The notes beneath the pieces are model-generated. The model did not search any database and had not been told where the DNA came from. It saw only the letters and a program-made list of their open reading frames with translations. Positions 12,888 to 38,725 of a DNA stretch of 45,005 nt are shown one piece after another (positions within the stretch are counted from its first letter, which is position 1; every line of letters begins with the position of its first letter). The position numbers and the translations under genes are program-made. The stretch lies in IMG/VR virus record IMGVR_UViG_3300045988_045233, positions 1-45,005 of that record. The stretch is one strand, 5' to 3'. The DNA comes from a virus.

Positions 12888-13045
12888 GCGCCCACCGCCT
12901 TTTTACCGGCCTTTACACCCTCTGCATAAGCGAAGTTCATAAGTTTGCAGACATCATCGGCGCAGTCTCTCAGCGTTTCATTAAGGTCGGCATCGGTCAA
13001 GCCAGACAGCTTCAGGAGAAAATCGCGCGTAAAAGGATAGTTCAT
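12884..13045 (-). CDS. Small hypothetical protein (53 aa), coupled to the antirepressor
   Basis: ATG at 13045. Its stop overlaps the antirepressor ATG (ATGA). Confidence 0.4.
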   Translation of the reverse strand: MNYPFTRDFLLKLSGLTDADLNETLRDCADDVCKLMNFAYAEGVKAGKKAVGA

Positions 13046-13135
13046 TGTAAAATACCTTTACTTTCTCCGTGAAATAATATAAAATAAAGGTACAAGAGGG
13101 GCTTTTGCTATGGTTGCTTCTTGTGCTTGGAGTGA

Positions 13136-13231
13136 TTAGCTGTTACGAGCGGCTAACCACTCTTTTTTATATTGCTCAAACAATTTGCGCTGCTGTTCAC
13201 GGTTCAGCCGTTGAAACTCTTTGAACTTCAT
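13136..13231 (-). CDS. Small hypothetical peptide (31 aa)
   Basis: ATG at 13231 preceded by AAAGGAGG. First ORF downstream of the minus-strand promoter. Confidence 0.35.
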   Translation of the reverse strand: MKFKEFQRLNREQQRKLFEQYKKEWLAARNS

Positions 13232-13268
13232 GGGCGTCCTCCTTTCCGCCCCTCTTGACCATACGTCT

Positions 13269-13297
13269 ATTATAATACGGTTTACAGCATATGTAAA
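13269..13297 (-). promoter_or_regulatory. Sigma-70-type promoter for the antirepressor operon
   Basis: On the minus strand: TTTACA (13297-13292), 17-nt spacer, TATAAT (13274-13269). Confidence 0.45.
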
Positions 13298-13313
13298 TTG
13301 TCACATTGTATAA

Positions 13314-13353
13314 TGTTTACCGCATAATTTTGTTTAATTTTATAGTGTAAACA
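13314..13353. promoter_or_regulatory. Inverted-repeat operator candidates TGTTTAC...GTAAACA
   Basis: TGTTTAC at 13314-13320 and GTAAACA at 13347-13353. Related half-sites GTTTACA at 13280-13286 and TGTAAA at 13292-13297 overlap both promoters. Confidence 0.45.
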
Positions 13354-13374
13354 GTGTTGCAAATGTGCTATAAT
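13346..13374 (+). promoter_or_regulatory. Extended -10 promoter for the ribbon-helix-helix gene
   Basis: TGcTATAAT at 13366-13374, with a weak -35 TGTAAA 17 nt upstream. Confidence 0.45.
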
Positions 13375-13416
13375 AGCATCGGGAAGCTTTTCTGAAAGTT
13401 GAAAGGAGGGAAAAGC

Positions 13417-13683
13417 ATGACTTCGGAATCTCAAAAAAGAGCAAATGCCAAATGGGACAAGGAGAACATGACGGTGCTGGCCTGCAAGGTGAGGAAGGAA
13501 GTTGCTGACAAGTTTAAAGCAGCTTGTGCGGCAGAAAATACGACCTCGAACGCCGTTTTACAGCAGGCAGTGCGGGACTATATCAATGCTCATCCCGTGC
13601 CGGAAGAGCCAAAAGCGCCACCGGGAGATGCAGAGACGGAAACCCGGCGGGCTGCACTGCTGGAACAAATCAAGAATCTGTAA
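13417..13683 (+). CDS. Ribbon-helix-helix (CopG/Arc/Mnt-like) DNA-binding protein
   Basis: 88 aa, ATG at 13417 after GAAAGGAGGG. The N-terminal beta-strand plus two-helix pattern (KENMTVLACKVRKEVADKFKAACAAENTTSNAVLQQAVRDYI) fits the fold. Confidence 0.65.
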   Translation: MTSESQKRANAKWDKENMTVLACKVRKEVADKFKAACAAENTTSNAVLQQAVRDYINAHPVPEEPKAPPGDAETETRRAALLEQIKNL

Positions 13684-14573: not shown

Positions 14574-15215
14574 ATGGATAACATGTCTTTGAGCGATATC
14601 GCTGCCGTGACCCGTGGCAACGATAACGACGGCTGGGGCCAGGGCGGCGCGTGGTGGATCATCATCCTCTTTTTGTTCGTCTTTATGGGCGGCAATGGTC
14701 TCTGGGGCAACCGCACCGGCGAGTACGGCCAGTATGCCACCGCGGCAAGCCAGCAGGAAATCCTCTATGGCCAGCAGTTTGGCCAGCTGAACGACCGCCT
14801 GACCAACATCGGCAACGGTATCTGTAATCTCGGTTATGAGATGCAGGGCAATATCGGTCAGCTGGGCAAAGAGGTTGCTCTGGCTCAGGCAGGCACCAAC
14901 ACCACCATCCTGCAGACCGGCAACGGCATCCAGGCACAGCTTGCTCAGTGCTGCTGCGACAACCGGCTGGCGACTGCCAACCTGGCAGCCCAGATGGACA
15001 AGCAGACCTGCGCGATCAACTCCAACATTGACGCAAAGTTTGCCGAGCTGCAGAAGAACCAGCTTGAGCAGACCATCGCGGCACAGGCCCAGCGGATCAG
15101 TCAGCTGGAGCTGGCCTCCCAGATGTACGGCGTTGTGAAGTACCCCAACGGCTACTCCTACAATGCGGGCCCGAGCCCCTTCTGCGGCTGCAATAACGGC
15201 TGCGGCAACATCTAA
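14574..15215 (+). CDS. Hypothetical membrane-anchored coiled-coil protein with Cys-rich motifs
   Basis: 213 aa. TM segment GGAWWIIILFLFVFMGG, long Gln/Asn-rich coiled region, CCCDN motif and C-terminal FCGCNNGCGNI. Confidence 0.6.
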   Translation: MDNMSLSDIAAVTRGNDNDGWGQGGAWWIIILFLFVFMGGNGLWGNRTGEYGQYATAASQQEILYGQQFGQLNDRLTNIGNGICNLGYEMQGNIGQLGKEVALAQAGTNTTILQTGNGIQAQLAQCCCDNRLATANLAAQMDKQTCAINSNIDAKFAELQKNQLEQTIAAQAQRISQLELASQMYGVVKYPNGYSYNAGPSPFCGCNNGCGNI

Positions 15216-15290
15216 CACATACGCCCTTTTGGCGAGGTTCGGCGGGGCGGCAAAGGCTGCTCCGCCTTTTATATAAGGAAGGAGATTTTT

Positions 15291-15692
15291 ATGTCTAAAT
15301 CTGCTATTTATACCGCCAACACCTCGGCTCAGACCGTGGCGGTAAACGATATTATTCCTGTCGGCACCACTTCCCGGCGGTTTGGCTGCAACATTCGGCA
15401 GGACGGCAACACCATCACCCTGTTGGGTCAGGGCTACTACCATGTGACCGTGTCCGCTACACTGGCTCCCACGGCTGCGGGCACTGTGACCCTGACCGGC
15501 CAGAAGGACGGCGTGGCTGTCATCGGCGCTACCGCTTCTCAGGCTGTGGCCACTGCGGCTGCACCGACCAATCTGGCATTGACTTTCCTGGTGCGCAATG
15601 CGTGCGGCTGCGAAAGCTCTATCCTGAGCTTCCTGCTGACCGGTACTGCTGCCGCGGTGAACAATATGGCTGTGGCCGTGGAAAAACTGTAA
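15291..15692 (+). CDS. Hypothetical beta-rich protein, BclA-C-terminal/C1q-like pattern
   Basis: 133 aa, RBS AAGGAAGGAG. Ala/Thr/Val-rich beta-strand pattern (GYYHVTVSATL, LTFLVRN). Confidence 0.5.
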   Translation: MSKSAIYTANTSAQTVAVNDIIPVGTTSRRFGCNIRQDGNTITLLGQGYYHVTVSATLAPTAAGTVTLTGQKDGVAVIGATASQAVATAAAPTNLALTFLVRNACGCESSILSFLLTGTAAAVNNMAVAVEKL

Positions 15693-15708
15693 GGGGGAGG
15701 ACCTGGTT

Positions 15709-16047
15709 ATGATGGACGAAGCAAAGTTTGCAGGGTATAAGGACACACTCGTTCATGCTGCAAAGCAAATGGCCGAAGAGTACAGCGATGCGATGAACTA
15801 CGCAAGCATGGCAATGGACTATAAAACTGTCTGCCCCTACGCTTCTTCTGAGTGGTATAAGCTCTCTGGGGAAGAAATGGAGCACGCTGACGCAAACCGC
15901 CGCATTGCACAGAAAATCCTTACCGGCGTTGACAGCGAGGATTCTGCAGCAGGCGTAGAGCTGCATCACATGTGGAGCATGGCGGAAGACCTTGTTTCTG
16001 GCCTGTGCGAAGCCGTTACAAAAGAACGCTCCGCATACATGCGTTGA
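15709..16047 (+). CDS. Hypothetical helical protein with an EEMEH motif
   Basis: 112 aa. Last gene before attP. Confidence 0.5.
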   Translation: MMDEAKFAGYKDTLVHAAKQMAEEYSDAMNYASMAMDYKTVCPYASSEWYKLSGEEMEHADANRRIAQKILTGVDSEDSAAGVELHHMWSMAEDLVSGLCEAVTKERSAYMR

Positions 16048-16116
16048 ATTTTTGCAACATTTGTTGTAAGATAAGGCGGGCGATTTATCGCTTTTAGAAT
16101 ACGCCATAAGCGAACA

Positions 16117-16127
16117 ACAAGCTAACA
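16117..16127 (+). repeat. Candidate integrase arm-type site ACAAGCTAACA (P arm)
   Basis: Exact 11-mer, repeated in direct orientation at 16311-16321 on the other side of the core. Confidence 0.45.
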
Positions 16128-16162
16128 CTTACTGCAAAAATAGCATAAATACGAAAAATATT

Positions 16163-16212
16163 ATTGATTTGTAATCAGTGGGTTGCAGGTTCAACTCCTG
16201 TCACCAGCTCCA
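16163..16212 (+). other. attP core: 3' 50 nt of a tRNA-Thr(UGU) gene (anticodon arm through CCA)
   Basis: ATTGA-TTTGTAA-TCAGT anticodon arm (anticodon TGT), GCAGG-TTCAACT-CCTGT T arm, CACCAGC acceptor strand, T, CCA. No D arm or 5' acceptor strand lies upstream. The integrase gene is adjacent. Confidence 0.7.
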
Positions 16213-16217
16213 AAAAA

Positions 16218-16265
16218 ATGCCGTTCATTCGTGATATTGAATCACATGAACGGCATTTTCTTTTG
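16218..16265 (+). terminator. Intrinsic terminator following the tRNA fragment
   Basis: Perfect 11-bp stem ATGCCGTTCAT/ATGAACGGCAT followed by TTTTCTTTT. Confidence 0.65.
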
Positions 16266-16310
16266 CGAAAACACGGCAAAAATCGGTAATAATCCGGAAT
16301 AAACTAACAA

Positions 16311-16321
16311 ACAAGCTAACA
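16311..16321 (+). repeat. Candidate integrase arm-type site ACAAGCTAACA (P' arm)
   Basis: Second exact copy. A partial CTAACA lies at 16304-16309. Confidence 0.45.
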
Positions 16322-16324
16322 AAA

Positions 16325-17455
16325 TCAGTATTTCATCTTTTGCATTTCCTGTAACAAGTATGTCGGGTCGTTGTGGGAAACGTACTTGTTTGCTGTGGTG
16401 GAAAAATTTTTGTGGCCGAGGATAGCCTGCACGGCAGTTTTTTCAAGACCGCACTCCACCATCTTGCTGCTGGCCGTGTGGCGAAGGGTGTGCGGGTGCA
16501 CACCATCGATCTGACACTCCTGCATCAAGGCTCGGAACTTTGTGGCCACGTTTCGCTTGTCCAGCTTCGTTCCGGCCTTGGAAGGTATCAGCCACTCGCA
16601 CCCGCTGTCCATCATCCAGAAGGCGATGATCTTGTAAATGGGGTCGAGGATGGGGATGATGCGGTTTTTGCCCGCTTCCGTTTTTTCACCGCCCTGCATG
16701 TAGTGCTCTTTCAGGTACACGTTCTCGCAGCGCATGGAAAGCAGCTCATCGATGCGCATACCGGTATAGAGAAGCACCATAGCGATCTGGGCCGTCTGGC
16801 CGAAGCGCTTGTCGGTCTGGTAGGCGCTGATCCGGGCAATCTCGTCCGCCGTAAGGGTGCGCTCTGCCTTTCCGGCTGCGGCAGGAAGGTGAAGGAGCTG
16901 GGCATAGTTCTTGTTTATGATGTCCTGGGCCATTGCCCACTCACATAGCTGGCTGAAAAGGGTGCGCTGCTTCTCACACGAGCTGCGGGAGAGACCGTCT
17001 GCAACCATCTGGTCTATGATCTGCTGATAGTCCTCCGCTTTCAGGTCTCGCATTTGTCGGCTGTACAGCGGAGCGGATTTTTTGAAAGCCAGCTCGTATC
17101 CATTTATCATGTCCCGGCTGAGACTTGAAAACTTCGGCTGTGCCCGCCATTTTTCGTAGGCATCCGCAAAAGTACACTTCAGGCGTTCTGCCGGGGTGTT
17201 CTGGGCATTGTATGCGTCAAGCGCCTGGACGGCTTCTCCGGGCGTTCCGTATGTGCCCAGCACTTCCTTTTTCCCGGTCATGGCTACATAGGGCCTTGCC
17301 CGGACCCCTTTCAGCTTGTACACGCTGCCGCTTCCCTTTGGGCGGCGGCGCTTTTTTCTATGCACGGGAGCGGACGTTGCATCCTGCTGCTTTCCGCACC
17401 ACGGGCAAAATAAAGCCTTGTCCGGGATGTTTACGTGGCATCTGACACACTTCAT
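16325..17455 (-). CDS. int: Tyrosine integrase with an N-terminal zinc ribbon
   Basis: 376 aa with the catalytic pattern TGMRIDELL, HTLRHT, LGH and ANKYVSH (R..HxxR..H..Y). N-terminal CxxC...CxxC. RBS AAAGGAG. Confidence 0.9.
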   Translation of the reverse strand: MKCVRCHVNIPDKALFCPWCGKQQDATSAPVHRKKRRRPKGSGSVYKLKGVRARPYVAMTGKKEVLGTYGTPGEAVQALDAYNAQNTPAERLKCTFADAYEKWRAQPKFSSLSRDMINGYELAFKKSAPLYSRQMRDLKAEDYQQIIDQMVADGLSRSSCEKQRTLFSQLCEWAMAQDIINKNYAQLLHLPAAAGKAERTLTADEIARISAYQTDKRFGQTAQIAMVLLYTGMRIDELLSMRCENVYLKEHYMQGGEKTEAGKNRIIPILDPIYKIIAFWMMDSGCEWLIPSKAGTKLDKRNVATKFRALMQECQIDGVHPHTLRHTASSKMVECGLEKTAVQAILGHKNFSTTANKYVSHNDPTYLLQEMQKMKY

Positions 17456-17458
17456 GCG

Positions 17459-18046
17459 CTACTCCTTTCTGCGCCCTATATAGCCCAAAGCGCCGTTCTC
17501 TGACGCTGCGCGCCCGGATTTGTAATTGATCTTCAAATCCTCCATCGGGGGATGCGGCTCGTCCGGGCACGGGTCAAGCCCTCTGATCTGGGCAAAGCTG
17601 TACTGATCGATGATGGTGCCGCACACGCTGACCCGGTTGTTGAGAGGGCAGTGGAGGTTTGCGGCTATTTCAGAGATAACTGCAGGCGGGCTGCTCCCGT
17701 GTCGGCCCTTGAGCACGAACAGCAGAAGCCGCCTGGAGAGCGGGGGAAGTGCCTGCACCAGCGTGTGAAGCTCCTTGTCTATGGCCGCGTCTTCCTTCTG
17801 GTTGTCTGGCACTGCGTACAGATCCGGGTGCATAACTTCCATAAACACCGTGATGGGGGACACTCCGCAGGCTGCGCACCAATCCATGATCTCGTCACTG
17901 TCTGGGCTTGTGTCTCCTTTTTCCCAGCTTTGCACCGTCCGCTCTCCCTTCTGGAGGCGGATCGCAATCTCTCTTTGACTTAGCCCGGCGGATACCCGCG
18001 CTTTTGAAAGTGCCTTCCCGATTTGAGCAGCGGTAAAATAACTCAT
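17459..18046 (-). CDS. XRE-family HTH regulator (candidate repressor), co-oriented with int
   Basis: ATG at 18046 after GGGTGA. HTH AAQIGKALSKARVSAGLSQREIAIRLQKGERTVQSWEKG, plus a ~130 aa C-terminal domain of unknown function. Confidence 0.75.
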   Translation of the reverse strand: MSYFTAAQIGKALSKARVSAGLSQREIAIRLQKGERTVQSWEKGDTSPDSDEIMDWCAACGVSPITVFMEVMHPDLYAVPDNQKEDAAIDKELHTLVQALPPLSRRLLLFVLKGRHGSSPPAVISEIAANLHCPLNNRVSVCGTIIDQYSFAQIRGLDPCPDEPHPPMEDLKINYKSGRAASENGALGYIGRRKE

Positions 18047-18070
18047 ACTTATCACCCCTAAACGCAACGT

Positions 18071-18110
18071 GTTATAAAAGAAAAATGGCGCAGAAAAACT
18101 CTGCGCCATT
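18071..18110 (-). terminator. Minus-strand intrinsic terminator upstream of the XRE-int operon
   Basis: Perfect 10-bp stem AATGGCGCAG/CTGCGCCATT, followed on the minus strand by TTTCTTTTAT. Confidence 0.55.
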
Positions 18111-18203
18111 CGACAAAAATTACACCAATTTCATTTTCCTCTGGCGCATGGTAGAATCTGGTACATAAGATGTAAATATTACCAAAAACAGGAGGAAAAT
18201 GAA

Positions 18204-18314
18204 ATGAAAAACAGTCAGACGATCAGCATGGACCCCGATATAACCATCATTGACGGAATGCCCGCCAGCGTGCTCACCGGCACGCGGCCCACTCCGAAGC
18301 CCTGGGAGGAATGA
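18204..18314 (+). CDS. Small hypothetical protein (36 aa)
   Basis: ATG after AGGAGGAAAATGAA. An extended -10 (TGgTAGAAT, 18149-18157) lies upstream. Confidence 0.35.
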   Translation: MKNSQTISMDPDITIIDGMPASVLTGTRPTPKPWEE

Positions 18315-18317
18315 TCT

Positions 18318-18527
18318 ATGGACAAGATGCAGAGCTTTTGTACCCACATCCGCGCCGCCCTGGCGTGCTATGAGGATATGCCGCCCGAGTGTCAGACTCG
18401 GGCCCGATTCTATGTGGTCCGCAAGGCGGAAAGCGTCCGGCGCTTGCTGGATGCCGCCAACTGCCCCGGCGGGGAGCTTGCCGGGGAACTGCTGCAGAAG
18501 ATGCAGCGGCTGGACGACTTCAAGTGA
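18318..18527 (+). CDS. Hypothetical protein (69 aa)
   Basis: RBS GGGAGGAA, ATG at 18318. More protein-like than the antisense ORF 18120..18554. Confidence 0.5.
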   Translation: MDKMQSFCTHIRAALACYEDMPPECQTRARFYVVRKAESVRRLLDAANCPGGELAGELLQKMQRLDDFK

Positions 18528-18619
18528 AAATCTAACTATTTTCAGAAAAATCAAATTTATTTTGTGATATCTATTGAATATTACAACTGAAAGATGTATA
18601 ATGCGTTTGTGGTAGGAAA

Positions 18620-19567
18620 TTAGCTATTAGGGAAAGCCTTAATAGGTTCAAGTCTTCGGTCCCCAATCTCTGCCATCCAAGCCTGATACTTTTCCGAATT
18701 GTCTTTCTTATGCTTAAAATAAGTTCTGAAGGTTTTTGGAAATGAAGTGATTCCGAGTTCAGAGTAAAATTCAAATTCTGACATCTCAAAATGGTATGGA
18801 TCTGTGCAGTCGTAGGTTCCGAGCTGAAAATTTCCATCCCACGAATCAATCAACCCAGTTGAAATAGAATTAAAGACATGAACCTTTGTGTTGTAGTAGA
18901 TGCTTAACCGAGGAATCTTTTTGAAAAGGCATTTTTCTTTTAGCTGCTTTTCCAGAGACGGGCAATTTAAGTATTCTCCGCGATACGTCTCAAAATCATC
19001 TGGAAGAGAAATATCACTGCTCCCAGATATTTGCGTTCCAACATAAAAGGCTCTTAGGTCACTCTTGAACGCTTCCGAGTTATTGCAATCTGAAAAATCG
19101 ATAGCTTCTGAATTGCGAATATAGCAGAGAACATGGGACGGAATTTCCTTTTCTTCTTTCCAATACTCATAAATTGAGTTTTGAGATGATGATGAGCCGG
19201 GAGAAGTAAGGCTGGAGCCAAAAGAAATCGATATTCCATGAGGAATAACACTGTTTCGTTCGTACTCTGCACGGGCATTATATGCACCGAGATAGTCTCT
19301 TTCCATTACAAGCGACATTATTTTTCGGTGTGCGGCGTTTCGTCGGTCTCTTTCGGTTTTCTTGAAATCTTTTGATACTGTTTTACCGGAATTTGTTAAA
19401 GCATATTTTTCAGGAGTGTCAATGATGTAACCTTCAGAAATGATCTCTTTGACATTTTTGTCGAAAGGATAAAACCGATCTTTTACATCATCATGGAGCC
19501 CCCACTTCTTTTCCCGGTCACCAAGGTAATTCACTAGGAAGCTTTTCTCTTGCCATGTCATAATCAA
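18620..19567 (-). CDS. Hypothetical cytoplasmic protein (313-315 aa), no recognisable domain; second gene of the low-GC cassette
   Basis: Long AT-rich ORF. Start is TTG at 19567 or ATG at 19561, 2 nt after the upstream stop (translational coupling). The N-terminal ~100 aa may be winged-helix-like. Confidence 0.6.
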   Translation of the reverse strand: MIMTWQEKSFLVNYLGDREKKWGLHDDVKDRFYPFDKNVKEIISEGYIIDTPEKYALTNSGKTVSKDFKKTERDRRNAAHRKIMSLVMERDYLGAYNARAEYERNSVIPHGISISFGSSLTSPGSSSSQNSIYEYWKEEKEIPSHVLCYIRNSEAIDFSDCNNSEAFKSDLRAFYVGTQISGSSDISLPDDFETYRGEYLNCPSLEKQLKEKCLFKKIPRLSIYYNTKVHVFNSISTGLIDSWDGNFQLGTYDCTDPYHFEMSEFEFYSELGITSFPKTFRTYFKHKKDNSEKYQAWMAEIGDRRLEPIKAFPNS

Positions 19568-19569
19568 AT

Positions 19570-20100
19570 TTAATTGAAGAATGTTGAGTAGGTGATAATA
19601 GACGTTGTGATTTTATTGTTCTCATAATTGATCCAAATGTCATTGATTCCGCAGTTATAAGCGCGATACCATGTTCCGGTGTCGTTTACAGTGGTCTTAC
19701 CTGTCTTTTTCAGATTGAACATTGTAAGGAACTGATCTTTATACTTATAAGGGAAAACGTCATAAAGTGTGATTCGATGCAGGCGTTCAAATACGAAATC
19801 ATATGTATTGTTTCCATAGAACAGCGTATGAATGGCTTGACCGTTGCTGTAAGTCCAGTCTTCGGTACTGTCTGGCTCTCCGATCATGCTGATAAGTTCA
19901 TCTTCTGTCAGGCCGGAACCGTCTTCGTGCTCATATTTTGTGGCATCGAATACAACGTCAACATCGTCTGCAATATTTTTGGCAGAAAGAAAACTAAACG
20001 CAAGCCCGAACACAAGAATCGCAACGATAATTGCGCATCCATTTGGTTTTTTCTTCGTTTTTTCGCCGTTGTTGACAATATCATTCTTTTTCCGAGCCAT
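19570..20100 (-). CDS. Hypothetical membrane-anchored protein (176 aa); first gene of the low-GC cassette
   Basis: ATG at 20100 after AGAGGTG. Lys-rich N-terminus, single TM (CAIIVAILVFGLAFSFLSA), then a ~130 aa extracytoplasmic domain. Confidence 0.6.
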   Translation of the reverse strand: MARKKNDIVNNGEKTKKKPNGCAIIVAILVFGLAFSFLSAKNIADDVDVVFDATKYEHEDGSGLTEDELISMIGEPDSTEDWTYSNGQAIHTLFYGNNTYDFVFERLHRITLYDVFPYKYKDQFLTMFNLKKTGKTTVNDTGTWYRAYNCGINDIWINYENNKITTSIITYSTFFN

Positions 20101-20113
20101 AAAAACACCTCTT

Positions 20114-20144
20114 AGATTCAAAAATAGGCAGCCAACCGGCTGCC
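20114..20144 (-). terminator. Minus-strand hairpin terminator or attenuator just upstream of the cassette
   Basis: 7-bp stem GGCAGCC/GGCTGCC with loop AACC, followed on the minus strand by TATTTTTGAAT. Confidence 0.5.
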
Positions 20145-20373
20145 AGAAAACAAATTTTCAATGACCAAAGGAGGAAAAGAAAGTGCGAGAACATAGCACA
20201 GAATTGATGAAGTCGGCCCCGGAATGTGTTATACTTGAGAAAATCAAGCTTGCACTTTCTCTTGACATTGACGTTGTCGCGCTGCTGGAAGCTGCGCAGA
20301 AAGGATGATTCCTATGACTTCCGAAAAATGGATGCTCGCAACCATCATCATCGATCATCTTCTGATCGGCTAC

Positions 20374-20577
20374 CTACTTCTTAAAACTCGCAATCTGTGA
20401 CATGACGGTCAAGATTCCGCTGAACCATGCAACGAATGGGGCTGTTTTCTCCATGAACTTCCAGATCGATGAACCGATCTGACGGACGGCTTTCTTTGGG
20501 AGTGATCGCTTGTATCGTTTCCACGCTTCTTTGTCCGCCCGGATGAACGGTTCAATCTCTTTGTTCCGAATCTTCAT
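20374..20577 (-). CDS. Small hypothetical protein (67 aa) with a hydrophobic C-terminus
   Basis: ATGA overlap with the upstream XRE gene. Confidence 0.45.
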   Translation of the reverse strand: MKIRNKEIEPFIRADKEAWKRYKRSLPKKAVRQIGSSIWKFMEKTAPFVAWFSGILTVMSQIASFKK

Positions 20578-20927
20578 TCTTTCCCCTTCGCTGCCTCAAG
20601 TGCAGCGTCAAGCATTTTTTCAAACATAACCCTTTGCGCAGGGTTAAGCTGCTCATACTTATATAGTATGGCTTTAGCGTGCGCATTCAGCTCACTCTCT
20701 TCACTGGGAGTGTGCTTTTCTTTTTGCTCCGGTGCTTCACCGGTCAGCTCTTCCACTGTTACACCTAGCGCATCTGCGACCGGTTTAATCATTTTTTCGG
20801 GGATATCCCGATTATTCGCAAGCATTTCAGACAGGTAACTCCGGCTTTTTCCTATCTGAGCGCACACAAATGCAAAGCTTATACCCTTGCTTTTAGCGAT
20901 TTGTTTAGCTCTTTCCACATTTCGCAT
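20574..20927 (-). CDS. XRE-family HTH regulator (CI-like side of the second switch)
   Basis: ATG at 20927 after GAGGTG. HTH SKGISFAFVCAQIGKSRSYLSEMLANNRDIP. Confidence 0.75.
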   Translation of the reverse strand: MRNVERAKQIAKSKGISFAFVCAQIGKSRSYLSEMLANNRDIPEKMIKPVADALGVTVEELTGEAPEQKEKHTPSEESELNAHAKAILYKYEQLNPAQRVMFEKMLDAALEAAKGKE

Positions 20928-20987
20928 AGAAAACACCTCGCATTTTTGTGCATCTAAACAAACTATTAGAAAATCGCAGATTCACTA

Positions 20988-21016
20988 TTGAAACCTAATC
21001 AATTGTTTAGTATAAT
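20988..21016 (+). promoter_or_regulatory. Strong sigma-70-type promoter for the Cro-like operon
   Basis: TTGAAA (20988-20993), 17-nt spacer, TATAAT (21011-21016), flanked by the inverted repeat CTAAACAA (20954-20961) / TTGTTTAG (21003-21010). Confidence 0.6.
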
Positions 21017-21118
21017 ACGAAGCACAGGGACAAAACATAACAAAGCCCCTGAATATTTTATCGGGCTTTCGCTGGATTTTATGCACTTGTATCTCGCACT
21101 TACATAGTAGCATATTTC

Positions 21119-21155
21119 CTAGCGATTTTCAAGCCCAGAAAGGAGAAATCGCTAG
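21119..21155 (+). promoter_or_regulatory. 10-bp perfect inverted repeat enclosing the Cro-like RBS
   Basis: CTAGCGATTT (21119-21128) and AAATCGCTAG (21146-21155). AAAGGAG sits in the 17-nt loop and the 3' arm ends on the first base of the GTG start. Confidence 0.5.
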
Positions 21156-21367
21156 TGAATCTTTCGAAAATTGACGAATTCAGGAAGCTGCATGGCCTAT
21201 CAAGAACGGAACTAGAGGTTGCCGCAGGCCTGAGCAATGGAGCACTCGGACGTTGGGAACGTAGCGTCTACGGCCCCAGCATCAAGCAGCTGATGAAGGT
21301 GGCCCGATACTTTAAGGTATCCGTGGACAAGCTGCTGGTGGAAGAAGAAGGGGGGAAGACAGCGTGA
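21155..21367 (+). CDS. XRE-family HTH protein (Cro-like)
   Basis: 70 aa, GTG start. HTH LSRTELEVAAGLSNGALGRWERSVYGPS. Divergent from 20574..20927. Confidence 0.7.
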   Translation: MNLSKIDEFRKLHGLSRTELEVAAGLSNGALGRWERSVYGPSIKQLMKVARYFKVSVDKLLVEEEGGKTA

Positions 21368-21486
21368 ACAAAAAGCCCAGCCGTAAGCACGACTGGACCA
21401 CAACGAAGATTTTGGCTGCGACGGTTTGCGTTCAGGTTGTGACACTTATCTTGCAAATCATCAACTTAATCAGGAAATTTACCTGA
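21364..21486 (+). CDS. Small hypothetical membrane peptide (40 aa)
   Basis: GTGA overlap with the Cro-like stop. Hydrophobic stretch ILAATVCVQVVTLILQIINLI. Confidence 0.3.
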   Translation: MNKKPSRKHDWTTTKILAATVCVQVVTLILQIINLIRKFT

Positions 21487-21581
21487 AAAGTGAAAGAAGC
21501 GCGCCGAAGGTTATTTAGAGCATCTGCAAGATTCTGGACATTAACTCGCCCACAGCTTAAAAAAGGAGATGAACAACACCT

Positions 21582-21743
21582 GTGCTTTCGTTAATACTTA
21601 TTTTGGCTATCTGGGTTGCAGTGGTTCTCTGCAATCTGATCGCACGGAAAGTGGCTTCGGAGATTTCCGGTTGGTATCTTCCGTACACTATCGTGATTGG
21701 AGTTCTTACAACGGGATTTCTTCTTTTGACTGCAATCTTGTAA
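21582..21743 (+). CDS. Small two-TM hypothetical protein (53 aa)
   Basis: GTG 13 nt after AAGGAG. The product is strongly hydrophobic and more protein-like than the overlapping track ORF 21569..21802. Confidence 0.4.
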   Translation: MLSLILILAIWVAVVLCNLIARKVASEISGWYLPYTIVIGVLTTGFLLLTAIL

Positions 21744-22137
21744 TGATTTTATTGAGAAGCTGCACTTTTTCATCCAGTTTATCACCAAAGGATGTTTCGT
21801 AGCTTATCAGTTTATCCATTGCAAGAATATCTTTCTGGATTTCTTTTGGGACGTAGTAAGCAGCCAGCGCCGAATGAGAGCCATATTCCTGCAGGTTTTC
21901 TACTGTGGGCGACTGAATAGCCGCACCAGCCGCACGGATGTAACCCTCGTAGATTTCACGCTCACGTTTTATGCGTTCCTCGTGCTCCTGATGCTCATAG
22001 TCCATCCGCTTCATTTTTTGTTGATGCCAGTTATTACAAAGCGCGGTCAGCATTGGAGACAGCAAAGCACAGAACGAAACGATCATTGCTACCAACCCAG
22101 ACCAGTCCGAAACAGACATCCCAGCATTTTGTTCCAT
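21706..22137 (-). CDS. Hypothetical membrane-anchored protein (143 aa)
   Basis: RBS GGGAGGTG. N-terminal TM, then a charged helical region. Lies on the opposite strand to the early genes. Confidence 0.55.
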   Translation of the reverse strand: MEQNAGMSVSDWSGLVAMIVSFCALLSPMLTALCNNWHQQKMKRMDYEHQEHEERIKREREIYEGYIRAAGAAIQSPTVENLQEYGSHSALAAYYVPKEIQKDILAMDKLISYETSFGDKLDEKVQLLNKIITRLQSKEEIPL

Positions 22138-22199
22138 TTTAACACCTCCCTTCCGACCGATTATACCACGGGAAGGGAGACCCCAACAAGGAGGTTTAC

Positions 22200-22895
22200 A
22201 TGACAGACATCATCTTATCCACCCAGAACGGCGAGCCGGTGGCATCCAGTCGCCAGATCGCTGAGAATTTTGGCAAGCGTCACAACGATGTGATGGAAGC
22301 GATTCGCAATGTTTTAGCTACGGAAAAATCCGTAACTAAATTTTTCCACGAATCATCGTTTGAGTATCGCGGCCAGACCTACCCCATGTACCTGATGAAC
22401 CGGGACGGGTTCAGCCTGCTGGTGATGGGCTTTACCGGCAAGGCGGCGCTGGAGTGGAAGCTGAAGTACATCCAGGCGTTCAACGAGATGGAAAAGAAGC
22501 TGGCCACTCCGCAGATGCCCAAGCTCAGCAAGGAGCTGCAGGCGCTGTTCCTGCTGGACGACCGCACCCAGAGGCAGAAGCAGCGGATCACGGCGCTGGA
22601 AAACAACATGGTCGTGGACTATGACCAGCAGCTTTCCCTCAAGAATGCCGTGAACCACGTTGTTGTGGAAGCTCTGGGCGGCAAGAACGCCCCGGCATAC
22701 GGCGATTCCCATGTACGGGGCATGGTTTACTGCGAGATCAACAAGGACATTCAGATGTGGTTCCGGGTCAGCAGCAGAAACAACATTCCCCGCAAGCGCT
22801 TTGACGAGGCGGTGGAGTACATCCAGCGCTGGAAGCCCAGCACCAACACCGTGATGCTGATCCAGCAGTCCAACGGCCAGACCAGCATGTTCTAA
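22200..22895 (+). CDS. Rha-family regulatory protein with an ORF6C-like C-terminal domain
   Basis: The N-terminus is a paralogue of 12096..12887 (SSRQIAENFGKRHNDVMEAIRN, YLMNRDGFSLL). The C-terminal domain is different. Confidence 0.8.
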   Translation: MTDIILSTQNGEPVASSRQIAENFGKRHNDVMEAIRNVLATEKSVTKFFHESSFEYRGQTYPMYLMNRDGFSLLVMGFTGKAALEWKLKYIQAFNEMEKKLATPQMPKLSKELQALFLLDDRTQRQKQRITALENNMVVDYDQQLSLKNAVNHVVVEALGGKNAPAYGDSHVRGMVYCEINKDIQMWFRVSSRNNIPRKRFDEAVEYIQRWKPSTNTVMLIQQSNGQTSMF

Positions 22896-33163: not shown

Positions 33164-33239
33164 ACTCCGGCAGCTCAAGTGGTAGAGCAGCGGTCTCCAA
33201 AACCGCAGGTTGCAGGTTCGAGCCCTGCCTGGAGTGCCA
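33164..33239 (+). tRNA. tRNA-Trp (anticodon CCA), CCA-encoded
   Basis: 76-nt cloverleaf: acceptor ACTCCGG/CTGGAGT, D arm GCTC-AAGTGGTA-GAGC, anticodon arm GCGGT-CTCCAAA-ACCGC, T arm GCAGG-TTCGAGC-CCTGC, discriminator G, CCA. Position 8 is C. Confidence 0.85.
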
Positions 33240-37570: not shown

Positions 37571-38725
37571 ATGCCGACCCTTGCACGTGCATCCCCTGAG
37601 CGGGAGCTGCAACGCCTGATCCGGCTTTATCTCAAGGCTGAGACCGATATCATCAACGAGATCGGCCGCCTGCGCAGCCGGGGGCTTGTGGACTATCACG
37701 CCGTGGCCGCACTGGAACGGGTGCAGGAAATTCTCCGAAAGCTGGAAACGGATGAATGGGAGTATGTGCCCCGCATGGTCGAGGCGCAGTTTTACGTTCA
37801 TCACCCGGAGGCCCGGGCGATTCCCGGCGAGACAGCGGAAAAGCACCTGCGCGGCTACACCAACGCCCAGAGCCTTACCAGCACCCAGACGGATATCGTG
37901 CAGAAGCTCACGATGAACCTCATGGGCCAGCTGGTGGACGGGAACATGACGGTGCTTTCCGCTCTGCAAAGCGCCCTTCTGGGCCGGACTGAGCCAGACG
38001 TTTACCGGCGTATCGGTCTGGAGCAGGTGGCGGCACAGCAGGCTGTGGGAAGGGGCGTGAACCAGAGCGTTCCAGCCTTTGTGGATGCTCTGCGCCGGGA
38101 TGGCGTGACGGCGTTCACAGACAAGGCGGGACGGAATTGGAGTCTGCACACCTATGCAACGATGGTCTCCCGCACCACGTCTCGGCAGGCCGAAATCCTG
38201 TCTGTGGTGACGCAGGACGAGGGGCAGGACTTATATCAGATCAGCTCCCACGGCACAACCTGTGCCCTCTGCGCTCCGTATGAGGGCCGGGTATACAGCA
38301 AGAGCGGTAAAGACCCGCACTTCCCTCCGCTTTCGGATGCGTTCGGCAAAGTAGACCAAGCCGGGCCGGATGACCTGACAAACAGCTGGTTGAACATCCA
38401 CCCGAACTGCCTGCACGCCCTTCGCCCATGGACACCCGCCGGGCGGACGGAGGAAGAGCTGGAACGGATCAGGCGCTTTTCTGACCCCACAACAAATCCT
38501 TACAGCCGAGACCCGCGCACTAAGGCACAGATCGAGGCCTACCGCAAAAAGGAGCAGGGTCGCTCCAAATGGCTGCGAGATTACCGCCAGTGGGAAAATT
38601 ACCGCACGGCTCTGGGAGACAAGGTGCCCAAGACCTTTGAAACCTTCCAGCGGCACAAGCTGGCAGATGACGAAAAATATCACAAATGGATGAACGCATA
38701 CAGAACCGGAGGTGATGCCGATTGA
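37571..38725 (+). CDS. Head morphogenesis protein (Mu F / SPP1 gp7-like)
   Basis: 384 aa. WLNIHPNCLHALRPW motif of the F-like family. Follows the portal gene. Confidence 0.8.
   Translation: MPTLARASPERELQRLIRLYLKAETDIINEIGRLRSRGLVDYHAVAALERVQEILRKLETDEWEYVPRMVEAQFYVHHPEARAIPGETAEKHLRGYTNAQSLTSTQTDIVQKLTMNLMGQLVDGNMTVLSALQSALLGRTEPDVYRRIGLEQVAAQQAVGRGVNQSVPAFVDALRRDGVTAFTDKAGRNWSLHTYATMVSRTTSRQAEILSVVTQDEGQDLYQISSHGTTCALCAPYEGRVYSKSGKDPHFPPLSDAFGKVDQAGPDDLTNSWLNIHPNCLHALRPWTPAGRTEEELERIRRFSDPTTNPYSRDPRTKAQIEAYRKKEQGRSKWLRDYRQWENYRTALGDKVPKTFETFQRHKLADDEKYHKWMNAYRTGGDAD

Follow-up and report, generated by a model that had tools for sequence, protein, structure and literature searches.

An AT-rich stretch within a Faecalibacterium prophage lysogeny region is a composite that includes a gene with a MuF2-type tail

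The lysogeny region of this phage contains an AT-rich stretch at about 18.5–22.2 kb, which raises the question of whether the stretch is one defence or exclusion module or a set of independent genes. The window (the whole stretch of DNA analysed, 45,005 nucleotides) is a Faecalibacterium temperate phage or prophage, and its DNA matches to Faecalibacterium phages are partial. The mean GC of the window was 0.549 (SD of 1-kb windows, 0.049), and the minimum of all 45 kb was the 1-kb window from 18501, with a GC of 0.38, approximately 3.4 SD under the mean. The GC was 0.37–0.40 in the 500-nt windows from 18501 to 20000 and 0.44–0.46 in those from 20001 to 22000; the deep trough is confined to 18.5–20.1 kb and a shallower dip continues to 22.2 kb. 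The GC3 values of genes two and one were 0.38 and 0.45, and those of the integrase, terminase, portal, and other structural genes were 0.66–0.80. The low-GC island in a GC-rich genome proposed in the preliminary description is thus borne out by the sliding GC profile and GC3. The features of the region are as follows.

16325-17455, minus strand: tyrosine integrase (Phage_integrase, E 2.4e-29)
17459-18109, minus strand: XRE-HTH protein, 216 aa (HTH_3, E 1.3e-8)
18318..18527, plus strand: 69-aa ORF convergent on gene two (GC3 0.81)
18620..19567, minus strand: gene two (ORF list), cytoplasmic protein of 315 aa (TTG at 19567) or 313 aa (ATG at 19561)
19570..20100, minus strand: gene one (ORF list), signal-anchored protein, 176 aa
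20127..20144, minus strand: hairpin GGCAGCC-GGTT-GGCTGCC (perfect 7-bp stem), then TATTTTTGAA
20183..20308, plus strand: 41-aa ORF divergent from gene one (tblastn)
20374-20577, minus strand: 67-aa ORF, hydrophobic in a C-terminal segment (hydropathy), overlapping the CI-like gene
20574-20936, minus strand: CI-like XRE repressor, 120 aa (HTH_3, E 1.2e-5; PHROG transcriptional repressor families)
20937..21154: divergent CI-like/Cro-like control region with inverted repeats I1-I3 and facing promoter-like sites
21155..21367, plus strand: Cro-like XRE protein, 70 aa (HTH_3, E 4.9e-12)
21582..21743, plus strand: very hydrophobic 53-aa ORF, converging on and overlapping the 3' end of the 143-aa gene
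21706..22137, minus strand: gene for a 143-aa protein, between the Cro-like and antirepressor genes
22200-22895, opposite to the accessory ORFs: Rha/ORF6C antirepressor (lysogeny layout)

The integrase, HTH protein, CI-like and Cro-like proteins, and Rha/ORF6C antirepressor are in the places expected of the prophage lysogeny region that had been described. The integrase and 216-aa XRE-HTH genes, which form the left flank of the island, have a normal GC (0.55–0.56), and the promoter-like sites of the control region are at 20988-21016 (plus strand, 11/12 matches) and 21132-21104 (minus strand). The three ORFs named earlier (176 aa, ~315 aa, and 143 aa) are all present in the ORF list, as are small hydrophobic ORFs (21364..21486, 21582..21743, and 20374..20577, by hydropathy). 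The accessory ORFs run against the early genes as claimed: they are on the minus strand together with the integrase and CI-like repressor, and the Cro-like, Rha, and early genes are oriented oppositely. The idea of a foreign island agrees with the composition (GC and GC3) but fails for the island as a whole; because the phage's own CI-like/Cro-like switch (20574-21367) lies within it, not all of the island is foreign cargo. The island is a composite of this switch and independent accessory genes.

We examined whether genes one and two belong together by comparison with related prophages. In six loci (L005-L010), the integrase is 99% identical to that of the window and gene one is present, but gene two is absent. 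By blastn, window positions 15001-18522 and 19573-20268 match these loci at ~97%, and locus positions 8529-8541 separate the two matches there. In the comparison that had been proposed, these near-identical prophages thus differ by an indel of gene two. We read the junction base by base.

18523..19572: 1050-bp segment with gene two and its 3' flank only; 13 bp instead in otherwise 97% identical prophages
18613..18625, minus strand: 13-mer AGCTAATTTCCTA, comprising the last Ser codon of gene two, its stop, and 7 nt downstream
19562..19575 (right) and 18549-18562 (left): 14-nt direct repeat bracketing gene two, 13/14 identical (repeat family D2)

The same 13-mer ends gene one in the relatives without gene two. 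For this reason, it appears that the relatives lost 18626-19572 and 18523-18612, rather than that the window gained gene two. Repeats as long as this one are common in the AT-rich stretch, where four similar families are present, and only the position of the 14-nt repeat is notable. The ready loss of gene two within the lineage was counted against a reading of the gene as exclusion cargo.

Relatives of gene two were found in 13 other loci, where gene one never adjoins it; outside the lineage of the window, the two genes are always apart. The two genes are adjacent in the window, yet the claim that they form a tightly coupled two-gene system did not survive, with gene one alone in L005-L010, a gene-one relative alone in L011, and gene-two relatives without gene one in the 13 loci. 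The earlier statement that gene two starts 2 nt past the upstream stop is correct for the TTG codon; the ATG at 19561, 8 nt past the stop of gene one, is the likelier start (313 aa) because the relatives begin with MTxQE.

None of the three proteins matched anything described, and Pfam, PHROGs, PADLOC, and NCBIfam gave no defence assignment. The statement that neither protein of the pair has a recognisable domain is in that respect supported, but it does not hold for gene two, which consists of an N-terminal winged helix, an all-α domain, and a MuF2-type C-terminal tail. The relevant features are listed below.

19304..19555, minus strand: winged helix-turn-helix and, after it, a helix of 30 residues, gene two residues 5-88 in the 315-aa numbering (pI 9.1)
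18647..18799, minus strand: three-helix tail, gene two residues 257-307 (motif FPKTFxTYxKHKxxNSEKYQxWM)
36095-37567, immediately before the MuF2 gene: portal (PF06381, E 2.7e-94)
37571..38725, plus strand: minor capsid protein Phage_min_cap2 (MuF2) of the phage itself (PF06152, E 3.6e-21, residues 13-326 only)

The gene two family has 32 relatives, and a search of 1.84 billion proteins yielded just 93 representatives at E<=1e-3. The AF2 model of gene two was confident (pLDDT 89.8, pTM 0.82), and no hydrophobic segment was detected by hydropathy. Pfam HTH_45 was matched by 25 of the 30 family members, the window copy being below the threshold. In the PDB, the family profile gave weak matches to AspA and Sso10a (E 0.012–0.04), and Foldseek gave MarR/OhrR/AspA across ~75 residues with a probability of 0.9–0.95 but an E of ~1; the winged helix and long helix thus resemble Sso10a/AspA/MarR. 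The all-α domain is novel and had no structural match. Gene two encodes an undescribed protein with a putative DNA-binding function.

The last 52 residues of the window's MuF2 protein (nt 38567-38722) were found by motif scan and hhalign to be common with gene two. In hhalign, residues 257-307 of gene two aligned with MuF2 residues 333-384 (probability 99.1%, E 1.4e-18, 52 columns), and pairwise BLASTP of gene two against this MuF2 gave an E of 2e-5. At the level of sequence, the C-terminal tail of gene two (~50 residues) is homologous to that of the MuF2 minor capsid protein. About half of the remote HMM matches of gene two cover the tail only, and the same tail ends MuF2 cores elsewhere, including ones that run on into ADP-ribosyltransferase, Ntox50, or ATLF-like toxin domains. 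No solved structure covers the MuF2 tail, and no sequence relation was found between it and the DNA-binding C-terminal domain of 80alpha gp44. MuF-type proteins are low-copy, portal-bound ejection proteins required at the start of infection (PMC6316719, PMC5576092, PMC7290940).

All nine of the non-structural tail-bearing proteins examined (the window copy, P0002, P0008, P0011, P0052, P0070, P0082, P0074, and the 618-aa protein of L035) are encoded between the repressor and the integrase or recombinase. The C-terminal half of the MuF2 core is also kept in four of the nine (P0070, P0082, the L035 protein, and P0074, the last assigned by inspection only), and in the first three its fusion partners are SAP, zinc-ribbon, or FtsK-gamma modules. 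Gene-two relatives begin 2 nt past the stop codon of an S24 repressor, ahead of the integrase, in L012-L014, and the relative in L004 follows a 120-aa HTH repressor. The same slot in related gut prophages contains varied cargo, including the exclusion lipoprotein Ltp, DUF2513, RhuM, and, in L035, DUF3800; one such locus has an Abi_alpha gene elsewhere in its early region. Ltp is an exclusion gene within a lysogeny module (PMC3952083).

Gene one has a ribosome-binding site (AAGAGG) 8 nt ahead of its ATG. In its product, a basic N-terminus precedes a transmembrane helix that spans roughly residues 22-41 (hydropathy maximum 2.6 at residue 22) and an acidic β-rich ectodomain of ~130 aa (pI 4.4) with a pLDDT >90 in the AF2 model. 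The top Foldseek match was 3d4e, a putative β-lactamase-inhibitor-like lipoprotein (E 2.7e-3, probability 0.99), with a TM of only 0.30–0.33, which suggests a weak likeness of the modelled ectodomain to the BLIP-like lipoprotein fold. None of the 12 relatives is annotated. Gene one occupies the repressor-to-integrase slot, the same position as known superinfection-exclusion proteins, and its relative in L011 is located between an S24 repressor and the integrase, with no gene two there. The hairpin that ends 26 nt 5' of the ATG of gene one looks like a terminator or attenuator, and no convincing promoter for the gene pair was found in the search for promoter-like sites; these two observations point against cargo expressed in the lysogen.

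The best overall explanation, which we put forward tentatively, is that the lysogeny region carries exclusion cargo expressed by the lysogen, with gene two as a MuF mimic. The findings beneath it are the base composition and layout of the region, the separate occurrence of the genes, the homology of the tail, and a position in the lysogeny module that is conserved. The AT-rich core would consist of single-gene cargo cassettes, each mobile on its own and located within or next to the variable repressor-integrase slot, not of one system, and the genes would probably be expressed in the lysogen, most likely for competition with other phages. By position and topology, the outward-facing domain of gene one would most likely act in superinfection exclusion at the cell surface. 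The tail homology suggests a way for gene two to interfere with rival phages: with a winged-helix DNA-binding head, probably as a dimer, the lysogen-made protein may mimic or compete with MuF by engaging the partner of its tail, either the portal/procapsid or injected DNA ends. Related phages that enter the cell would then fail in infection or in the assembly of their heads. We infer lysogen expression, DNA binding, the partner of the tail, and any exclusion phenotype. Prophage defences that sabotage packaging are known, for example TERi (bioRxiv 10.1101/2025.02.27.640495). Because the resident MuF2 has the same tail, such a mimic would endanger assembly of its own phage unless it were off at induction. 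The PADLOC result, the low TM of the gene one match, and the packing of the gene two tail into the modelled fold also count against this explanation.

It is unlikely, in our estimate, that gene two instead regulates transcription in the lysogeny circuit, for example as an accessory repressor, as an anti-repressor, or by modulating excision or induction, with its winged helix on specific operators and the α domain and tail serving only folding, oligomerisation, or signal sensing. The likeness to Sso10a, AspA, and MarR regulators agrees with this proposal, as does the co-orientation, sometimes with translational coupling, with the repressor gene. The tail is also packed confidently into the fold of the AF2 model, so its role may be structural and not that of a free peptide that binds a partner. 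However, gene two is dispensable in prophages that share the immunity region and integrase, members without a winged helix (P0052, L018) hold the same position, and the N-terminal module is swapped for the non-specific DNA binders SAP, HeH, Rho_N, and FtsK-gamma, which are ill-suited to operator recognition. Retention of the MuF2 tail, and in some members of half the MuF2 core, would be left unexplained.

We consider it quite unlikely that the cargo comprises lysogenic-conversion factors for fitness of the host in the gut, with gene one as a surface protein with an envelope, adhesion, or inhibitor role, gene two acting on host DNA, and no anti-phage role. Morons at such a position can have non-defence functions, the nearest folds of gene one are extracellular BLIP-like lipoproteins and N-terminal domains of SCP-domain proteins, and the defence models of PADLOC gave no match. 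Nevertheless, all loci examined for the two families belong to prophages or viruses, and the module shared with a virion protein ties gene two to phage biology.

Gene two could also encode an additional pilot protein for the capsid interior of the resident phage, produced at induction or earlier, that enters the procapsid by its MuF2-type tail and is ejected with the DNA to act in the next host. The tail otherwise ends MuF2 proteins, whose packaging is via the portal and which can bear cargo domains to be delivered (PMC5576092, PMC6316719), and P0070 and L035 have fusions of DNA-binding modules with MuF2 parts. This proposal is improbable, given that the gene is located in the lysogeny module in 9/9 cases, distant from the head genes and with the late genes on the other strand, and given the loss of gene two while the phage lineage persists. 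Still less probable is a single two-component system in the abortive-infection or toxin-antitoxin style, with gene one as a membrane sensor or effector and gene two as its cytoplasmic partner, for which the gap of 2–8 nt, the lack of a ribosome-binding site of gene two's own, and the ≥94% identity of the pair in 11 IMG/VR contigs (integrase and repressor diverged to 83% and 56%) would speak, but L005-L010 and L011 have gene one on its own, the 13 loci have gene-two relatives that are coupled to repressor genes instead, and no PADLOC or TA model was matched.

The 143-aa gene is a separate cargo gene. By hydropathy, its product crosses the membrane once near the N-terminus (helix at residues 15-33), and the rest, which is helical and charged, is probably cytoplasmic; none of its 96 relatives is named. 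In four other prophages it occupies the same place, on the opposite strand between the Cro side and Bro-N, and in L005-L010, which do not have it, AntA/ANT stands in place of that stretch. Three small ORFs are also conserved. The 69-aa ORF is conserved at amino-acid identities down to 78% in diverged relatives and appears in L005-L010 as a called gene of 71 aa, and the 41-aa ORF is kept at 66–100% amino-acid identity in every related locus (tblastn) and corresponds to a 43-aa gene in L006-L010. The 53-aa ORF shows 47% identity beside the distant homologues of the 143-aa gene in L041-L044 (tblastn), where a 52-aa gene is called at the same place.

The GC content of the window in 500-nt windows was 0.37–0.40 at 18501–20000 and 0.44–0.46 at 20001–22000, and it was mostly 0.53–0.62 outside 18501–22000. 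In 1-kb windows the mean was 0.549 (SD 0.049), and the minimum of 0.38 was found in the 1-kb window starting at 18501. This profile bears out the low-GC island that the preliminary description had placed in the lysogeny region. The GC3 values of gene two and gene one were 0.38 and 0.45, respectively, against 0.66–0.80 in core genes such as those for integrase, terminase and portal. Two shallower GC dips were observed elsewhere, at 13001–13500 (0.40) and 16001–16500 (0.42), the latter just left of the integrase gene. The similarity to prophages lying beside a glmS-like gene ends at about 16163, which indicates that 16001–16500 probably holds attP. The three ORFs named earlier (gene one, gene two and the 143-aa gene) are all present, and the region is arranged as follows.

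Genes and ORFs of the lysogeny region
16325–17455, minus strand, tyrosine integrase
17459–18109, minus strand, XRE-HTH protein of 216 aa (195 aa as called in relatives)
18318–18527, plus strand, 69-aa ORF conserved at the protein level in relatives
18620–19567, minus strand, gene two (313 or 315 aa)
19570–20100, minus strand, gene one (176 aa)
20183–20308, plus strand, 41-aa ORF conserved at the protein level in relatives
20374–20577, minus strand, 67-aa ORF conserved at the protein level in relatives
20374–20936, minus strand, the 67-aa ORF overlapping a CI-like XRE protein of 120 aa
21155–21367, plus strand, Cro-like protein of 70 aa
21706–22137, minus strand, 143-aa gene
22200–22895, plus strand, Rha/ORF6C antirepressor

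The CI/Cro intergenic region contains promoter-like sites facing each other and inverted repeats. Since the CI-like and Cro-like genes lie inside the island, the island contains both the phage's own immunity switch and cargo. As a whole it is a familiar kind of thing, the moron-rich lysogeny region of a temperate phage. The 216-aa XRE-HTH protein directly upstream of the integrase is a second HTH protein besides the CI-like one, and a terminator-like hairpin with a 13-bp stem (18083–18111) overlaps the annotated start of its gene. No Rfam family or tRNA was found within 15.5–23 kb of the window; a tRNA-Trp gene (anticodon CCA) is located at 33164–33239 on the plus strand, upstream of the terminase region.

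The DNA matches among GenBank phages were only short stretches of FP_Lugh, FP_Epona and Aster, together with unannotated faecal contigs, and the nearest cluster of gene one carries a name from Faecalibacterium duncaniae. The window is a temperate phage of Faecalibacterium. This genus is among the most abundant bacteria of the human gut, and its prophages are common; to our knowledge, the accessory genes of these prophages are almost entirely uncharacterised. The BFVD entry A0A8S5URI9 (Myoviridae sp. ctsIb3, a human-virome assembly), an uncharacterised protein of 313 aa, was 100% identical to the gene-two product over the aligned columns, which indicates that the same or a near-identical phage is already present, unannotated, in public viral databases.

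Gene two has two possible starts, TTG 19567 and ATG 19561. The latter gives 313 aa, 8 nt past the gene one stop, and is likelier because the relatives begin MTxQE. The family is small: we found 32 relatives in a collection of 5.8 billion proteins, and an exhaustive profile search of 1.84 billion representatives gave only 93 matches at E≤1e-3. The alignment is marked by the motifs FLVNYLGDR, NARAxYE..SVIPHGI, LDFSDCxNS, CPxLD, WDGxFxLGxYDC and FPKTFxTFxKHKxxNSEKYQxW. The AF2 model was confident (pLDDT 89.8, pTM 0.82) except for a Ser-rich loop at 112–130, and it contains three parts.

Parts of the gene-two product
Residues 5–88, winged helix and 30-residue helix, pI 9.1
Residues about 92–256, all-alpha domain with no PDB or BFVD match
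Residues 257–307, tail of three helices in the AF2 model

HTH_45 was matched by 25 of 30 gene-two relatives (best E 9.5e-6), mostly under the gathering score, and the window's own gene two gave no HTH_45 match at E≤0.1. The head resembled MarR, OhrR and AspA with Foldseek probabilities of 0.9–0.95, but with E values of about 1. The gene-two profile gave only weak winged-helix matches (AspA, Sso10a) against PDB sequences, and a Foldseek search of PDB and BFVD with the whole model recovered winged helices and A0A8S5URI9 only, with no relative of the alpha domain. No model in Pfam, PHROGs, PADLOC or NCBIfam describes gene two or gives a family for gene one, and a scan of the three cargo proteins and the small ORFs with these collections returned nothing; HTH families were obtained for the regulators only. 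The island had been proposed as a candidate for a DefenseFinder or PADLOC check; a run of PADLOC-DB 2.0 assigned gene one, gene two and the 143-aa protein to no defence system and gave a single weak winged-helix match, WH_III-A (E 0.023).

Profile scans of IMG/VR and GTDB with the gene-two family (the GTDB genome scan giving five loci) produced many partial matches restricted to residues 258–305. These were the C-termini of proteins that Pfam assigns to Phage_min_cap2, the MuF2 branch of the MuF superfamily, which includes SPP1 gp7 (PMC5576092). The window encodes its own MuF2 minor capsid protein at 37571–38725, directly after the portal gene (36095–37567), and this protein ends ...VPKTFETFQRHKLADDEKYHKWMNAY. 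The next gene downstream (38722–40002) codes for a protein with a DUF2213 domain. Alignment of the gene-two family with 13 MuF2 sequences by hhalign gave a probability of 99.1% and an E value of 1.4e-18 over 52 columns, and nothing elsewhere; residues 257–307 of gene two align with MuF2 residues 333–384 in the profile-profile comparison. Pairwise BLASTP of gene two against the MuF2 of the window gave E 2e-5, and gene two carries the pattern PKTFxTFxKHKxxNxEKYxxW of the MuF2-clade tail. The Pfam MuF2 model ends at residue 326, ahead of the tail, and in longer MuF2 proteins the tail is placed between the core and ADP-ribosyltransferase, Ntox50 or ATLF-like toxin domains. In the gene-two model, the tail is an integral part of the fold; among solved structures, none covers it.

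Gene two is not a MuF protein. It gave no PF06152 or PF04233 match and thus has no MuF core, and some 17 kb separate it from the portal gene, which is on the other strand; the tail alone is common to gene two and MuF2 proteins. The preliminary description recognised no domain in either gene one or gene two. That still applies to gene one, and it no longer applies to gene two, which has a predicted winged-helix head (judged by the HTH_45 matches of its relatives) and a MuF2 tail. We also compared the MuF2 tail with the DNA-binding C-terminal domain of 80alpha gp44; hhalign shows no similarity, so the function of gp44 is not transferable to the tail. The Pfam models DUF7893 and TcpC-like_C touch the tail at E 0.04–0.1, which we treated as not significant.

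A separate observation concerns a 704-aa MuF2 (L034:914–3028, IMGVR_UViG_3300028805_001444), whose conserved core motif NIHPNCL...C is interrupted by roughly 330 inserted residues. With its terminal ...VTHN and the C that comes next, the insertion resembles an intein within the minor capsid protein. P0085, P0113, P0114 and P0120 belong to the same observation, and representatives of 705–719 aa have the tail at about residues 655–712.

We examined nine proteins that carry the tail outside the head module, and all nine were encoded in a lysogeny module.

Tail-bearing proteins in lysogeny modules: protein, architecture, position
Gene two of the window: winged helix, alpha domain and tail; between the CI-like gene and the integrase
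P0002: same architecture as gene two; starts 2 nt past the S24 repressor stop, before the integrase
P0011: same architecture as gene two; preceded by a 120-aa HTH repressor and followed by the integrase
P0008: same architecture as gene two; adjoins the integrase
P0052: alpha domain and tail only; between S24 repressor and serine recombinase, in that order
P0070: winged helix/SAP, C-half of the MuF2 core and tail; between repressor genes and integrase, in that order
P0082: zinc ribbon, MuF2 C-half and tail; between S24 repressor and integrase, in that order
P0074: other N-terminus, MuF2-like C-half and tail; between repressor and serine recombinase, in that order
618-aa protein of locus L035: FtsK-gamma, MuF2 C-half, tail and SAP; between S24 repressor and serine recombinase, in that order

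The MuF2 C-half was confirmed in three of them, P0070, P0082 and the 618-aa protein. In tblastn, L035 and the locus of P0070 (L046) were 50–53% identical to the MuF2 of the window over about 180 residues, and P0070 and P0082 could be aligned with genuine MuF2 proteins. For P0074, the MuF2-like C-half was recognised by sequence inspection only. Other members of the gene-two family have SAP, HeH or Rho_N modules in place of, or added to, the winged helix. The nine positions and architectures together indicate a recurrent class in which a DNA-binding head is joined to a C-terminal part of an ejection protein and which is encoded where lysogen-expressed genes sit. A literature search for MuF parts in lysogeny modules found none.

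Binding to DNA and to the portal has been described for MuF proteins (PMC6316719, PMC7290940). SPP1 gp7 is present in few copies, enters the procapsid through a strong interaction with the portal and helps infection to begin (PMC6316719); in the ejection protein 80alpha gp44, the C-terminal 60 residues bind and protect DNA ends (PMC7290940); and MuF proteins can bear toxins for delivery (PMC5576092). By analogy with these roles, gene two is best read as encoding a protein by which the lysogen mimics or competes with MuF. The product would be made in the lysogen, as its position suggests, and its targets would be related phages that come in, at the stage of head assembly or through the DNA that they inject. 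Such a decoy, with a winged helix, SAP, FtsK-gamma or zinc ribbon as its N-terminal DNA-binding head, would occupy the MuF partner of the incoming phage (the portal and procapsid, or the injected DNA ends), and the infection or the infectivity of the progeny would then fail. Points that weaken this reading are the integration of the tail into the modelled fold, its lack of sequence similarity to the gp44 C-terminal domain, and the terminator-like hairpin ahead of gene one, where no convincing promoter was recognised. That the repressor-to-integrase proteins with a MuF2 tail, with or without half of the core, form an undescribed prophage class of superinfection exclusion through virion-protein mimicry is a tentative proposal, and we regard it as rather improbable as a whole.

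Sabotage of virion assembly or packaging of incoming phages is the defence exerted by Tab of Pseudomonas prophages, and its logic is that proposed here for gene two. The logic of TERi from Listeria comK prophages is also alike, in that a lysogen-expressed protein hits a conserved late-stage component (bioRxiv 10.1101/2025.02.27.640495). Gene two has no sequence or structural relationship to TERi or Tab, and its putative target, the partner of the MuF tail, differs. We know of no mimicry of a virion protein's own module in the TERi or Tab systems.

Other readings of gene two were considered. Gene two may be a lysogeny regulator: its N-terminal ~90 residues, modelled as a winged helix followed by a long helix, recall the Sso10a/AspA dimers, and the gene lies beside the repressor and the integrase. 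However, Sso10a, AspA and MarR are small stand-alone DNA binders or regulators, whereas in gene two this module heads a 313-aa protein, and across its family SAP, HeH, Rho_N or FtsK-gamma modules stand in for the head or accompany it. Gene two may also be cargo for host fitness, since morons at this position can have functions other than defence; set against this is the module shared with a virion protein, which ties gene two to phage biology. The link to the MuF tail leads to an exclusion hypothesis that is specific and open to testing. A further reading, an additional pilot protein that is packaged, would fit the last ~50 residues common to MuF2 and gene two, and the C-terminal half of the core common to MuF2 and the sister lysogeny-module proteins; unlike the MuF superfamily (SPP1 gp7, 80alpha gp44, Phage_Mu_F, MuF2 and the MuF polymorphic toxins), gene two is located on the lysogeny strand and has a winged helix and an unrelated alpha domain. 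Should these proteins prove to be decoys, they would give resident phages a novel means of keeping out relatives, and the conserved C-terminal module of MuF2 proteins would gain its first link to a function. Otherwise, a small lysogeny-module family whose members have taken the tail, and in some cases half of the core, from the ejection protein of the phage itself would still record repeated movement of a domain out of a structural gene into the lysogeny module, and this movement needs explanation.

The weakest alternative is a true two-gene system, the tightly coupled operon of the preliminary description: gene one and gene two are paired in 11 IMG/VR contigs, even where identity has dropped to 83% for the integrase and 56% for the CI-like protein, but these contigs belong to one phage lineage (L020–L030), gene one occurs alone in L005–L011, and the gene-two relatives in 13 other loci have no gene one nearby. 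The two genes were found apart in L001–L004, L005–L011, L012–L017, L031 and L045–L047, and in L011 a gene-one relative (46% identical) stands alone between the S24 repressor and the integrase. The co-occurrence across lineages that marks two-gene toxin-antitoxin or abortive-infection systems was thus not found, and the separate occurrence indicates that each gene is a self-sufficient cassette. The unknown island is now resolved into three concrete, separately testable genes.

A near-identical gene-one cluster (P0033) was found on hundreds of contigs. We read six loci in full (L005–L010), in which the integrase is 99% and the 216-aa HTH protein 98.6–99% identical to those of the window and gene two is absent. 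Positions 15001–18522 and 19573–20268 of the window match these loci at about 97% in blastn, and merely 13 bp replace 18523–19572. Read base by base, the junction is AGCTAATTTCCTA, which in the window (18613–18625) forms the last Ser codon of gene two, its stop codon and the next 7 nt. By use of AGCTAATTTCCTA, gene one terminates ...FFNS-stop in L005–L010, and it ends ...FFN-stop in the window and in the relative P0035 (62–66% identical). The shared 13-mer favours deletion in the relatives over insertion of gene two. In the simplest reading of the junction, the relatives would have lost gene two by a 947-bp deletion between two AAT triplets together with 90 bp of 3′ flank, a direction that we infer. 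Gene two is bracketed by a 14-nt direct repeat (18549–18562 and 19562–19575, 13/14 identical), to which we give little weight because repeats of that length are common in this AT-rich stretch. A transposon-like insertion of gene two is unlikely, as the repeat is missing from the empty site and such repeats are frequent here.

Two broken variants were also observed. In P0034 (193 aa), gene one runs out of frame into the start region of gene two, through a frameshift or an assembly error. In a Lachnospiraceae MAG (L015:3435–4234), the gene-two relative is broken after 75 codons and is pseudogene-like. In L009 (ERZ1689423 NODE_41, 35797–52330), phage lysis and antirepressor genes, not the host glmS-like gene, come after the same integrase, and the contig holds a second gene-one copy (L008) at a distance of about 44 kb, which suggests tandem or adjacent related prophages.

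Gene one is preceded by AAGAGG 8 nt before its ATG. The product has a basic N-terminus, a single strongly hydrophobic helix at about residues 22–41 (hydropathy 2.6) and an acidic ectodomain of about 130 residues (pI 4.4), which the positive-inside rule places outward. The N-terminus is MARKKNDIVNNGEKTKKKPNGCAIIVAILVFGLAFSFLSA; the sole Cys is located upstream of the hydrophobic core, which indicates a signal anchor and no lipobox. Only 12 sequences went into the AF2 model, which gave an ectodomain of beta-sheets and short helices with pLDDT above 90. The best Foldseek match was 3d4e, a putative beta-lactamase-inhibitor-like lipoprotein of Streptococcus mutans (E 2.7e-3, probability 0.99, TM 0.30–0.33, rmsd 13 Å over 164 columns), followed by N-terminal domains of extracellular SCP-domain proteins. 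As TM-scores were only 0.30–0.38 throughout, the BLIP-like match is a lead and not an assignment. Gene one and 11 relatives gave no Pfam match, Ltp domain included, even at E≤5, and the gene-one profile gave only chance-level matches against PDB and Pfam (EF-hand, GLEYA, and zinc ribbons in one variant). Neither gene one nor gene two had a tblastn match in 50,697 GenBank phage records, and gene one has no sequence relationship to any annotated phage protein in PHROGs or these records.

Surface-exposed superinfection-exclusion proteins of Gram-positive prophages include the lactococcal Sie2009-type. Gene one is located in the interval from the CI-like gene to the integrase, its L011 relative directly between the S24 repressor and the integrase, and a lysogeny-module position near repressor and integrase is common to gene one and Ltp of Streptococcus thermophilus phage TP-J34 (PMC3952083). 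By analogy, gene one matches known surface exclusion proteins such as Ltp in position, topology and prophage restriction, and its product would most likely work in a similar way. Nevertheless, gene one is not a member of the Ltp family, for it has no lipobox and no Ltp domain (PF07553). Ltp-type lipoproteins block DNA injection by superinfecting phages. Ltp consists of helix-turn-helix repeats, whereas the modelled ectodomain of gene one has a beta-rich, weakly BLIP-like fold.

No convincing promoter was recognised before gene one. A terminator-like hairpin with a perfect 7-bp inverted repeat and a T-rich tail (20127–20144) ends 26 nt upstream of the gene one start on the coding strand, in a stretch that is 96.7% identical among relatives. 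It could be an attenuator of read-through from the repressor operon or a protein-binding site.

In the 143-aa protein, an N-terminal transmembrane helix (residues 15–33) precedes basic residues and a charged helical segment, the latter probably cytoplasmic. Its 96 relatives are all unnamed, and tblastn against the 50,697 GenBank phage records gave two unannotated faecal contigs only. Relatives in four other prophages occupy the same place on the opposite strand, between the Cro side and a Bro-N antirepressor, and their 3′ end is overlapped by a conserved hydrophobic ORF of 52–53 aa on the other strand. The gene is missing from L005–L010, where AntA/ANT replaces the whole stretch. It is the third independent cargo gene of the island.

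The interval from S24 repressor to recombinase carries different cargo in each of L041–L044 and L035: DUF2513; Ltp and DUF2513; Virulence_RhuM; a 140-aa protein together with a separate HTH_37 protein, a toxin-antitoxin-like pair; and DUF3800. The Ltp gene fills the slot in L042, a related gut prophage. In these phages, the slot between repressor and integrase is a hot spot for cargo. An Abi_alpha gene was also observed in the early region of L043.
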